Origin: a virus
Taxonomy: Duplodnaviria > Heunggongvirae > Uroviricota > Caudoviricetes
DNA: 28,681 nucleotides
Direction: 5' to 3' (one strand)
Virus record (IMG/VR): IMGVR_UViG_2563366854_000003
Location: 1 to 28,681 of that record
The notes under the pieces: model-generated
The model's database searches: none
What the model saw: the letters and a program-made list of their open reading frames with translations, nothing else
Told to the model about the DNA's origin: nothing
Position numbers and translations under genes: made by a program
Shown here: positions 10,550 to 11,109 of the stretch, piece by piece
Position numbering within the stretch: position 1 is the stretch's first letter
Layout of the letters: each line of letters begins with the position of its first letter

Positions 10550-10786
10550 TTTTATGGATCACCTTTCTGATTGATTTCATATTGGCGAGGTGACGTGAGT
10601 TAAGTAGAATGGCTGCGGGTGCTTGAGGCTATCTGTCTCAGGCATGAACACTGAAAGGCAGATAGAGAAAAGCCCCAGTTAACATTTCGCGTCCTGCAAG
10701 ACGCTTAACATTAATCTGAGGCCCAATCTATGTCTCACAAATGTAGGTTAGCCTCTTACGTGCCGAAAGGCAAGGGGAAGCAGGCT

Positions 10787-10942
10787 ATGAAGCAGCAAAA
10801 GGCGATGTTAATCGCCCTGATCGTCATCTGTTTAACCGTCATAGTGACGGCACTGGTAACGAGGAAAGACCTCTGCGAGGTACGACTCCGAACCGGCCAG
10901 ACGGAGGTCGCTGTCTTCACAGCTTACGAACCTGAGGAGTAA
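10787..10942 (+). CDS. hokD: Hok/Gef-family type I toxin (51 aa, HokD/RelF-like)
   Basis: Internal Met of the 70-aa track ORF gives 'MKQQKAMLIALIVICLTVIVTALVTRKDLCEVRLRTGQTEVAVFTAYEPEE'; TM helix plus conserved Cys; upstream leader resembles hok mRNA leaders. Confidence 0.85.
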   Translation: MKQQKAMLIALIVICLTVIVTALVTRKDLCEVRLRTGQTEVAVFTAYEPEE

Positions 10943-11010
10943 GAGACCTGGCGGGGGAGAAATCCCTCGCCACCTCTGATGTGTCAGGCATCCTCAACGC
11001 ACCCGCACTT

Positions 11011-11039
11011 AACCCGGTTCGGCGGGTTTTGTTTTTTTC
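11011..11039 (+). terminator. Rho-independent terminator at the 3' end of the hok mRNA
   Basis: AACCCGGTTCGGCGGGTT hairpin followed by TTTTGTTTTTTT. Confidence 0.55.
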
Positions 11040-11109
11040 TGGCATTCTGGTTTACAATTCGCACGTCAGCCTGAACACCTGACACCTGCTGCGCCAGCAG
11101 AGAAAACAG

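Follow-up and report, generated by a model that had tools for sequence, protein, structure and literature searches.

The plasmid-borne hok/sok system of R1 (parB) acts in post-segregational killing, its classic role. Other members of the family are found in the chromosome of Escherichia coli and its prophages. The hokC (gef)/mokC/sokC locus belongs to the core chromosome and in K-12 is followed by IS186, whereas K-12 hokD, also called relF, lies in the cryptic prophage Qin. The hokW-sokW locus of the Stx2 prophage Sp5 (933W type) works as a type I toxin–antitoxin pair and aids the release of Sp5 (Takada et al. 2021, PMC8621323).

Here we describe a locus of this family in a 28,681-nucleotide stretch of viral DNA (hereafter the window). 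Positions 10582–11038 very probably hold a complete hok/mok/sok type I toxin–antitoxin module of the hokD/hokW subtype that is apparently functional, and its carrier is a lambdoid prophage integrated beside ompW in E. coli. The sequence and predicted structural elements typical of the Hok/Gef family are all present: the toxin, mok with its Shine–Dalgarno (SD) sequence, a sok gene, a structured leader, tac and fbi, and a metastable 5′ hairpin. The original prediction had placed such a locus at 10600–11040; its content holds, but the left edge must be moved, as the −35 box of the hok promoter (10582–10587) lies 13 to 18 nt outside it. The module is an ordinary one of a kind already known; it is common, and public genomes contain annotated copies identical to it. 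What mild novelty there is lies in variation that clusters at the Sok recognition site.

Distribution and prophage setting

E. coli FORC_069 matches a 541-bp stretch of the locus at 100% identity, and 4938 of 5426 complete genomes of E. coli contain homologues. The identical sequence is named hokD in other genomes of the species; those inspected carry it as a hokD CDS only, without mok, the sok RNA or regulatory features. The coordinates given below for mok, sok and the RNA elements fill these gaps, and their value is mostly for annotation. Because the match to K-12 starts only at about 10773, the PGAP name "hokD" should be taken to mean the toxin and not the architecture of the K-12 locus. 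Among 80 related loci, conservation of the module spans ~10598 to ~11030.

The module sits in the early, nin-like region of the prophage, between queH and the DUF968-rusA-Q genes and outside the lysis cassette. The prophage also carries dicB/DicF and ydfABC. An IS256-family element occupies 8455–9769, about 0.8 kb upstream of the module. Disruption of the module by this nearby element was considered and rejected, as the IS lies upstream of queH, outside the module.

Toxin and mok reading frames

The hok frame runs on the plus strand from an ATG at 10787 to 10942 and encodes the 51-residue toxin that had been proposed from inspection of the sequence. It matches the Pfam family HOK_GEF (PF01848) over the full profile, 1–42, with E = 1.6e-22 and 79.3 bits (cut-off 22), and is preceded by SDhok, AAGGGGAAG, at 10772–10780. 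Protein alignment gives it identities of 98% to K-12 HokD, 90% to HokW, 80% to HokC and 41% to R1 Hok, and the conserved family residues C15, T25-R26, E31, R35, G37 and E40-V41-A42 are all present. K-12 HokD has been reported to be toxic (bioRxiv 10.1101/2025.08.07.668861), and the one difference from it, I34L, is conservative; no disabling mutation is seen. The earlier view of an intact toxin, unlike the decayed chromosomal copies, is thus borne out, and K-12 hokD has relE where mok, sok and tac belong. By analogy with the experiments on K-12 HokD and hokW-sokW, Hok would kill or arrest the cell and Sok would neutralise it.

The in-frame start noticed upstream of hok, at 10730, opens a 70-codon mok frame (10730–10942, plus strand; ORF scan) that ends at the same stop codon as hok. 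Its SD sequence, GAGG at 10718–10721, is 8 nt upstream of the mok ATG. The frame is positionally homologous to annotated K-12 mokC, which likewise uses one stop codon with hokC, and the equivalent frame is labelled MokW in related phage records. By analogy with these systems, hok is probably translated through the upstream mok frame by translational coupling.

A TACG motif at 10925–10928 (plus strand), in the codon for Tyr47, is a candidate site for A-to-I editing by TadA, which would change Tyr to Cys. Its flanks are identical to those in K-12 hokD, which has been reported to be edited at the aligned TACG position (PMC5630033), and the same editing may occur at the Tyr47 codon in the window.

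Promoter, transcript and terminator of hok

A generic promoter scan of 10400–11200 called a single sigma-70-like site. This hok promoter (10582–10610, plus strand) has a −35 box TTGGCG at 10582–10587, a 17-nt spacer and a −10 box TAGAAT at 10605–10610. The −10 box aligns with the TATAAT of K-12 hokC and with the R1-type −10 box, and the TTG of the −35 box is retained in both main upstream contexts found among the 80 related loci. The hok-like leader that had been suspected was recovered as a full-model match to Rfam RF01794 at 10617–10792, starting 7 nt downstream of the −10 box, with 120.5 bits (gathering score 59) and E = 2.9e-27. This score is higher than that of all four reference loci: 118.3 for K-12 hokC, 113.5 for the hokW type, 109.7 for hokB and 87.2 for the R1 type.

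An intrinsic terminator, also anticipated by the original prediction, was located by a terminator scan at 11011–11038 (plus strand). Its stem, 11011–11028, has 6 bp with four GC pairs and is followed by TTGTTTTTTT, with the T-run reaching 11038. Taking the 5′ end from the start of the Rfam model and promoter geometry and the 3′ end from the terminator, we predict a full-length plus-strand hok mRNA of ~421 nt, from 10617 to ~11037. The fold of this RNA, at −170.8 kcal/mol, is far more stable than that of shuffled sequences (−131.8 ± 6.0 kcal/mol; z = −6.5; 0 of 100 as good). The R1 transcript is blunt-ended (PMC1635323). Because the terminator in the window begins 6 nt beyond fbi, the primary transcript here would not be blunt-ended as described for R1, and the distance to be processed would be ~55–60 nt rather than 39 nt.

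Folding elements of the hok mRNA

The locus was aligned with R1-type hok/sok, K-12 hokC and hokB, and the 933W-type hokW locus. The R1-type reference is an IncFII plasmid locus with a leader slightly unlike that of canonical R1, and R1 numbering was therefore not transferred; its Hok is 100% identical to what we take to be the sequence of R1 Hok. The hok −10 box, the +1 region GGGTGCTTGAGGCT, ucb GCCCC, SDmok GAGGC, the sok −10 and −35 boxes, SDhok and fbi are all conserved in the alignment, with the GCCCC of ucb invariant across the five family members. At 10621–10640, the leader motif GCTTGAGGCT...TCTGTCTCA represents the 5′ terminus conserved among hok mRNAs.

The translational activator element, tac, 5′-GGGUGCUUGAGG at 10617–10628, is invariant in 78 of the 80 related loci. 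Its partner at the other end of the plus-strand transcript is the fold-back inhibition element, fbi, CCUCAA-C-GCACCC at 10992–11004, with which it forms a duplex of 12 bp and one bulge in the full-length minimum free energy (MFE) fold. Several observations speak for this pairing. In the whole 28.7-kb window, fbi is the best plus-strand partner of tac; the energy of the duplex is −21.5 kcal/mol, whereas shuffled UTRs give −14.0 kcal/mol (z = −3.6; none of 200 as good); and the two elements covary over 54 distinct tac/UTR combinations, with pairs such as GGGUGC/GCACCC, GGCGC/GCGCC and GGGCGCC/GGCGCCC. Across the family, fbi is always found 47–58 nt past the hok stop codon. When the 3′ end is removed in folding, tac re-pairs instead with ucb (upstream complementary box or anti-SDmok; AAGCCCCAG at 10670–10678, plus strand), using 10670–10676. 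A ucb/SDmok fold of the full-length RNA costs just 0.5 kcal/mol above the MFE, and the two published full-length conformations (ucb/SDmok versus ucb/SDhok) differ by this same 0.5 kcal/mol, which MFE folding does not separate.

Three plus-strand hairpins complete the predicted structure. At the 5′ end, the first 29–52 nt of the nascent transcript fold (MFE) into an 11-bp hairpin at 10619–10645 (10619–10629 with 10635–10645) of −16.5 to −17.8 kcal/mol, and a switch from this hairpin to tac/ucb is predicted only after ucb has been transcribed. In this model, the metastable hairpin would prevent premature pairing of tac with ucb during transcription. The Sok-target (sokT) hairpin at 10718–10755 appears both in the MFE folds and in the Rfam consensus structure. 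In it, SDmok GAGGC (10718–10722) pairs with dcb GCCUC (10751–10755), and an inner stem (10725–10733 with 10741–10749) closes a 7-nt loop, CUCACAA at 10734–10740, that contains the YUNR motif CUCA. A hairpin at 10942–10977 (core 10949–10972, GAAA loop) is predicted in all folds. An R1 hairpin at the equivalent position stops 3′ trimming (PMC1635323; PMC9841398), and by analogy this road-block hairpin probably marks the 3′ end of the processed, active hok mRNA.

The antisense sok gene

RF01794 is named for the sok antitoxin, and the match to it falls on the plus strand. Read literally, this match would place an antitoxin sRNA at 10617–10792 in the same sense as hok and not antisense to it. The K-12 loci served as controls for this reading: there the same model matches the coding strand of mokC/hokC and mokB/hokB, opposite the annotated sokC and sokB ncRNAs. 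In the window, moreover, the match extends through SDhok to the region of the hok start codon. Both results indicate that RF01794 models the hok mRNA leader and that the true Sok is encoded within this leader on the opposite strand. A sense antitoxin is accordingly extremely improbable, and the sense sRNA suggested by the Rfam strand was rejected on the K-12 controls. Users of the Rfam "sok" model should be aware that it reports the wrong strand for the antitoxin.

On the minus strand, a sok promoter spans 10745–10773, with a −35 box TTGCCT (reverse complement of 10768–10773), a 17-nt spacer and a −10 box TAACCT (reverse complement of 10745–10750). It was located by homology to R1 and sokW and was not called by the generic consensus scan of 10400–11200; only 3 of the 6 bases in its −10 box agree with the consensus. 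Aligned with the R1-type TTGCGC-17-TATCCT, the promoter corresponds to it base by base; it is near-invariant across the 80 related loci and identical to that of sokW. In sokW, primers YO-421/422 turn TAGGTTA in the promoter into CCGGCTC, and antitoxin activity is abolished (PMC8621323). The presumptive antisense RNA of the original prediction thereby gains a predicted promoter and transcript at 10773–10664 of the minus strand, based on R1 alignment and folding. Although sok and mok had been judged impossible to delimit by eye, both can be given boundaries (sok ~10738–10664; mok 10730–10942).

The predicted Sok RNA is ~71–75 nt long (10664–10738, minus strand). Its start was placed at ~10738, 7 nt past the −10 box, and by homology to K-12 sokC, whose annotated 5′ end is the 9th nucleotide of mokC; the Sok 5′ end in the window agrees. 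It would consist of a 14-nt single-stranded 5′ tail (10738–10725), a long hairpin (10724–10670) and a U-rich 3′ end reaching ~10664. The fold has −29.6 kcal/mol (z = −4.8; 0 of 200 shuffles as good). The Northern probe YO-592 used for sokW corresponds to 10708–10737 (PMC8621323). These features point to a cis-encoded Sok that overlaps the mok start and SD sequence and has a putative promoter and terminator of its own.

A rival reading is that the locus has decayed or fallen silent in the manner of K-12 hokD/relF or of hokA, hokC and hokE with their IS insertions, the toxin frame surviving while RNA regulation is dead or Hok is not produced at all. K-12 hokD fits this description exactly, lacking mok, sok and tac and with relE upstream. 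The sok −10 box is a weak match to the consensus, some chromosomal hok loci that look intact gave no post-segregational killing in earlier work, as quoted in bioRxiv 10.1101/2025.08.07.668861, and the IS256-family element lies close by. The IS is, however, separated from the module by queH, and IS-free genomes have the same module at 100% identity. All regulatory elements are present, and constraint on them is visible in compensatory changes, a near-invariant sok promoter and the conservation of tac and fbi; the Rfam score exceeds that of every reference locus; and the near-identical hokW-sokW is functional. Loss of the sok promoter or the fold-back elements had been named as the sign of decay, and alignment with the R1-type and K-12 loci finds none of them lost, with folding recovering both tac/fbi and tac/ucb. 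We regard decay as highly unlikely and treat the locus below as a complete module.

Variation at the Sok recognition site

In the related loci, variation in this otherwise very conserved module concentrates at 10723–10740. This is the site at which Sok nucleates, namely the U-turn loop of the target hairpin, to which the leading nucleotides of the Sok 5′ tail are complementary. The alleles found there fall into at least five classes, and in all of them coordinated changes retain the hairpin and a 7-nt loop of CUNR type. Alleles of Sok include TCTCACAAA, CTGAACACA, CTTTGCACA and CTAGACACA. In the two multi-copy genomes inspected, the three co-resident hokD-type copies each have a different allele.

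The alleles could be specificity classes kept apart by selection, such that the Sok of each prophage protects only against its own hok. We consider this unlikely on present evidence. If it were true, a prophage could not be lost "for free" under the antitoxin of another, and the alleles would act as an addiction identity code among co-resident lambdoid prophages; this speculation would concern the way in which several related prophages can each remain "addictive", independently of one another, within a single genome. Alternatively, the pattern could reflect relaxed constraint on mok codons 2–4 and on the loop bases, with identical prophages seldom residing together; prophage immunity and shared attachment sites confound any comparison of alleles between co-resident copies.

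Proposed mechanism and role

From the mechanisms of R1 hok/sok and Sp5 hokW-sokW, we infer the following course of events. The hok promoter would give rise to a stable mRNA of ~420 nt, the 5′ end of which would be locked in the metastable hairpin while the transcript is nascent. In the complete mRNA, tac would pair with fbi, closing the ribosome sites of mok and hok and keeping both ribosomes and Sok off. Slow exonucleolytic trimming of the 3′ end to the road-block hairpin would free tac to pair with ucb, and this pairing would expose the target hairpin that holds SDmok and the U-turn loop. As long as the element is present and transcribed, a short-lived Sok of ~72 nt made from the constitutive promoter on the opposite strand would bind the loop by its 5′ tail. 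Sok binding would block translation of mok and hence the coupled translation of hok, and the duplex would be destroyed, partly via RNase III. Once the supply of Sok stops, processed hok mRNA would be translated, and Hok would enter the inner membrane and depolarise or lyse the cell.

For a module in a prophage, the literature gives most support to two triggers: induction of the prophage, in which case the module would help lysis and phage release as hokW-sokW does, or loss of the element. Sp5 hokW-sokW provides the sole direct experiment on this subtype: RecA-dependent induction leads to loss of Sok and production of Hok, and deletion lowers phage yield and release, although only ~2-fold (PMC8621323). 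The main role could instead be stabilisation of the prophage through post-segregational killing, as in R1, or abortive-infection defence against other phages, and not mainly lysis of its own host cell. R1 hok/sok lowers the plating of T4 (as cited in PMC8621323), hok genes are ~4-fold enriched in prophages (bioRxiv 10.1101/2025.08.07.668861), and the position of the module between queH and DUF968-rusA-Q, outside the lysis cassette, would suit such a role. The induction experiment in Sp5 points the other way, as does the failure of several chromosomal hok loci to mediate post-segregational killing in the earlier work quoted in the same preprint. Stabilisation or defence as the main role is possible but, in our view, somewhat doubtful. 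Nothing in the sequence separates these roles from lysis, and they are not mutually exclusive.

Comparison with known systems

Overall, the locus in the window shares its genes, its RNA elements and their order with R1 hok/sok, and follows the same logic of pairing between the 5′ and 3′ ends. The canonical mok of R1 is out of frame with hok, whereas that of the window is in frame. The core of tac/fbi is GGCGC/GCGCC in R1 and GGGUGC/GCACCC in the window, and the R1 Sok hairpin is ~16–18 nt shorter. The hokC locus is closer, with an in-frame mok, a common stop codon and the same tac sequence, but its Sok hairpin is also shorter and its sok −10 region reads AGAGTGCC on the hok strand compared with AGGTTAGCC in the window.

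The hokW-sokW system is of the same subtype and architecture, with ~93% identity over the DNA of the module. The sok promoter, tac, ucb and fbi are identical, in each locus mok is in frame and the host is a lambdoid prophage, and compared with R1 and hokC both Sok hairpins are longer by the same 16 to 18 nt. The two loci carry different alleles at the Sok 5′ tail and at mok codons 2–4 (TCTCACAAA in the window, CTGAACACA in hokW-sokW) and differ in the C terminus of Hok (TAYEPEE compared with VDYESEK in HokW). The TACG context is absent from HokW, which has GACTACGAA where the window has GCTTACGAA. Past fbi the hokW sequence diverges, with no terminator aligned there, and the flanking genes differ as well, the window having queH and DUF968.

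K-12 hokD shares its coding region, 3′ UTR, fbi and terminator with the window, and the toxins are nearly identical, but the match begins only at ~10773; the hok promoter, tac, ucb, mok and sok are missing, and relBE abuts the gene. In the window the leader is present and queH, not relBE, lies upstream. Qin is a related type of prophage and has dicB/DicF and ydfABC in common with the prophage described here. The locus in the window shows the module in its ancestral, complete form, of which K-12 retains only the relF/hokD stump.

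Toxin and mok reading frames

The plus strand of 10300-11400 was read and its ORFs were listed. The mok frame, an overlapping ORF that starts upstream of the toxin gene, runs for 70 codons on this strand (10730-10942) and has GAGG at 10718-10721. The hok toxin ORF (10787-10942, starting with ATG; product MKQQKAMLIALIVICLTVIVTALVTRKDLCEVRLRTGQTEVAVFTAYEPEE) forms its final 51 codons, so that the two are in frame and have a common stop, the same arrangement as in the annotated mokC/hokC pair of Escherichia coli K-12. The product is a HOK_GEF protein (Pfam; 1.6e-22, 79.3 bits compared with a cut-off of 22). 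It is 98% identical to K-12 HokD, 90% to HokW of a 933W-type Stx2 phage, and 80% to HokC/Gef, with identities of 41 and 35% to the more distant members R1 Hok and HokB, respectively. The toxin had been expected to be intact, and it is: the full profile is covered, and I34L is the single change with respect to K-12 HokD.

A TACG motif at 10925-10928 (plus strand) falls in the Tyr47 codon of hok. The surrounding sequence is identical to that of K-12 hokD, for which TadA-dependent A-to-I editing, converting Tyr to Cys, has been reported at the aligned position (PMC5630033). By analogy, editing of the Tyr47 codon by TadA is probably an extra layer of control here too. The context of the motif, UUACGAACC, resembles the anticodon loop of tRNA-Arg2.

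Transcript signals and the Rfam match

A consensus scan returned one promoter-like site, TTGGCG-17-TAGAAT at 10582-10610, and one terminator-like site, 11011-11028 followed by TTGTTTTTTT, both on the plus strand; we assign these to hok. The leader motif, in-frame start at 10730, toxin ORF, and terminator named in the original prediction are all found in the sequence.

Rfam family RF01794 ("sok") matches 10617-10792 over the full model (120.5 bits, gathering score 59, E = 2.9e-27). The match lies on the hok-coding strand, although the family is named "sok antitoxin". As a strand control, the same search was run on four reference loci: K-12 hokC/sokC and hokB/sokB, an R1-type plasmid locus, and the 933W-type phage hokW locus. 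In K-12, the match falls on the mokC/hokC and mokB/hokB strand, opposite the annotated sokC and sokB noncoding RNAs, and RF01794 is therefore a sense-strand model of the hok mRNA leader. The true Sok RNA is inside the match on the other strand, and the model reports the wrong strand for it. The window scores higher than all four reference loci (118.3, 113.5, 109.7, and 87.2 bits).

The sok gene

The antisense gene, which had been only presumed, was delimited by aligning the window with the same four loci. Window TAGGTTAGCCTCTTACGTGCCGAAAGGCAAGG (10744-10775, hok strand) aligns with R1-type CAGGATAGCCTCTTACCGCGCTTTGCGCAAGG. On the minus strand, this segment reads as a promoter (10745-10773) with a −35 box TTGCCT (reverse complement of 10768-10773), a 17-nt spacer, and a −10 box TAACCT (reverse complement of 10745-10750); the R1-type sok promoter has TTGCGC-17-TATCCT at the equivalent place, and the sok promoter region of hokW-sokW in Sakai prophage Sp5 is identical to that of the window. 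A "promoter-less" sokW mutant in which TAGGTTA was changed to CCGGCTC (primers YO-421/YO-422) lost antitoxin activity and regained it when sokW was supplied in trans (Takada et al., PMC8621323).

The putative 5′ end of Sok is placed at 10738, 7 nt past the −10 box and at the position where K-12 sokC is annotated to begin, the ninth nucleotide of mokC. The predicted minus-strand RNA, 10738 to 10664, starts with 14 unpaired nucleotides as a 5′ tail, continues into a long hairpin (10724-10670), and ends in UUUUCUCU. This predicted fold (−29.6 kcal/mol, z = −4.8) was equaled by none of 200 shuffles. R1 Sok, with 64 nt, an 11-nt 5′ tail, and a single stable stem-loop (PMC1635323), has the same architecture except at the hairpin tip, where the window carries 16 to 18 nt more than the Rfam model, hokC, and R1.

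Folding of the hok mRNA

The predicted full-length RNA (10617-11037) has a minimum free energy (MFE) of −170.8 kcal/mol, compared with −131.8 ± 6.0 for dinucleotide shuffles (z = −6.5). In this fold, tac, the element at the mRNA 5′ end (10617-10628, GGGUGCUUGAGG), pairs with the complementary 3′ element fbi (10992-11004, CCUCAA-C-GCACCC). When the tac 14-mer was scanned against every 20-nt window on both strands of the 28.7-kb sequence, fbi was its best plus-strand partner; the only stronger hits overall were the trivial antisense copy of tac itself and one minus-strand site. The duplex (−21.5 kcal/mol versus −14.0 for shuffled 3′ UTRs, z = −3.6) was matched by 0 of 200 shuffles.

If the RNA is cut at 10985 or 10990, just 3′ of the road-block hairpin (10942-10977), the predicted fold changes: tac re-pairs with its alternative partner ucb (AAGCCCC, 10670-10676), and SDmok (GAGGC, 10718-10722) pairs with dcb (GCCUC, 10751-10755) in a hairpin presenting the 7-nt loop CUCACAA. 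The first 29-52 nt of nascent RNA are predicted to form an 11-bp hairpin (10619-10629 with 10635-10645), which corresponds to the metastable 5′ structure known for R1 (PMC9841398). A constrained full-length fold in which ucb pairs with SDmok lies just 0.5 kcal/mol above the MFE, and thermodynamics therefore cannot pick between the two closures of the ribosome sites.

Conservation and the variable Sok-contact patch

A single scan of species-representative genomes with a Hok protein alignment yielded 73 loci, from Escherichia, Shigella, Enterobacter, Klebsiella, Citrobacter, Leclercia, Kluyvera, and other hosts. In nearly all 73, the best 3′-UTR partner of tac lies 47-58 nt past the hok stop and covaries with tac: hokD- and hokC-type loci have GGGUGC.../...GCACCC, R1 types GGCGC.../...GCGCC, hokB types either GGGCGCC/GGCGCCC or GGGUGCC/GGCACCC, and Enterobacter GGGUGCUUGAGAC/GCUCAGGCACCC. 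Against shuffled UTRs, the median z was −3.4, and at most 2 of 200 shuffles were as good in 34 of 54 distinct combinations.

An IMG/VR scan gave 597 confirmed relatives, of which the closest 80 were kept and their 56 distinct sequences aligned. Conservation in this set extends from ~10598 to ~11030, and these limits are therefore taken as the module boundaries. The original prediction called for alignment to look for loss of the sok promoter or the fold-back elements; the promoter aligns, and together with tac, ucb, and fbi it is near-invariant in the closest 80 of the 597. Compensatory A-U to G-C changes appear in the first hairpin in the same set (CTATCTG...CAGATAG versus CTGTCTG...CAGACAG).

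Within the otherwise conserved module, the most variable positions among these 56 sequences are 10723, 10729, 10733-10736, and 10740. The patch they define (10723-10740) comprises the loop of the target hairpin, its 5′ arm, and mok codons 2-4, and is complementary to the 5′ tail of Sok. The patch exists in at least five allele classes, every one predicted to fold into the SDmok/dcb hairpin, mostly with a 7-nt loop beginning CUNR. Two genomes with three hokD-type copies each, ECMA0423 and SFBU1023, both carry three different alleles. This diversity may reflect selection for Sok specificities that do not cross-react; it may equally reflect relaxed constraint on a stretch of peptide that has no function, together with the low frequency at which identical prophages share a host.

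Prophage context and distribution

The prophage is of the lambdoid type and lies next to ompW; the window starts with its integrase. Genes follow in the order int, xis, exo, dicB/DicF, ydfABC, repressor genes, ydaT, replication genes, DUF977, queH, and hok/sok, followed by DUF968, rusA, Q, a methyltransferase, tRNAs, iraM, a nanS-like esterase, lysis genes, and terminase. The DicF sRNA lies at 4537-4588 (minus strand, 76.7 bits). Two tRNAs occupy 15312-15468 (plus strand), downstream of the genes for the Q antiterminator and the methyltransferase; the identical E. coli AF58 prophage has them annotated as Ile and Arg. The STnc100 sRNA model matches 15735-15925 (plus strand) at 133.7 bits. Directly 5′ of hok, in the early region of the prophage, is a QueH-type epoxyqueuosine reductase gene for tRNA modification (9863-10549, plus strand; PF02677, 1.1e-65); about a third of related IMG/VR loci have this same context (CATATTGGCGAGG...) upstream of hok. 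In identical genomes, PGAP calls two small hypothetical proteins: a 59-aa ORF (10984-11163, minus strand) overlapping fbi and the terminator, which may be a spurious call, and a 90-aa ORF (11110-11382, plus strand).

AF58 is 100% identical over window 1-23477, barring a 1315-bp insertion sequence at 8455-9769. This element has 30-nt imperfect inverted repeats, an 8-bp target duplication (TGGTTGTC), and a 402-aa transposase ORF (8527-9735); from the appearance of the transposase sequence, it would belong to the IS256 family. The insertion, which AF58 lacks, separates the DUF977 gene from queH, lies ~0.8 kb 5′ of the hok promoter, and leaves the module untouched.

A 541-bp stretch containing the module has a 100% identical copy in E. 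coli FORC_069, with the CDS annotated hokD. The module has matches in 4938 of 5426 complete E. coli genomes (coverage ≥80% in 3689), at a median of two and a maximum of nine places per genome, and in 102 phage records, a large share of which are of Stx-converting phages. In a recent survey, Hok is reported in about 80% of Enterobacteriaceae genomes, with ~4-fold enrichment in prophages (bioRxiv 10.1101/2025.08.07.668861). Near-identical enterobacterial hok loci also appear on short contigs of Veillonella, Acinetobacter, Xanthomonas, Streptomyces, Ferruginibacter, Oscillibacter, Dysgonomonas, and Vagococcus assemblies or metagenome-assembled genomes; these most likely reflect contamination or mis-binning rather than real hosts.

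Comparison with known hok/sok systems

The hok/mok/sok module is complete and intact and belongs to the hokD/hokW subtype, which confirms the observation behind the original prediction and supports its reading. K-12-type hokD covers only query 214-477 (window 10773-11036). Because the K-12 match starts at 10773 and relE precedes it there, K-12 hokD is a truncated version of the complete module seen in the window.

Because of its homology to R1, the mechanism can be carried over from the R1 model (PMC1635323; PMC9841398). The full-length hok mRNA would be stable and closed, and slow 3′ trimming would activate it. Unstable Sok would then grip the refolded mRNA, its 5′ tail contacting the U-turn loop, and block mok, such that Hok would be produced only once the supply of Sok stops. 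Direct evidence for the subtype is that on hokW-sokW: upon RecA-dependent induction, Sok vanishes and HokW appears in the inner membrane, and deletion of the pair halves Sp5 release (Takada et al., PMC8621323). Prophage stabilization and phage exclusion are possible additional roles, which the sequence does not separate. The module is already known: its identical form is present in public genomes, and its closest sister, hokW-sokW, has been characterized experimentally.
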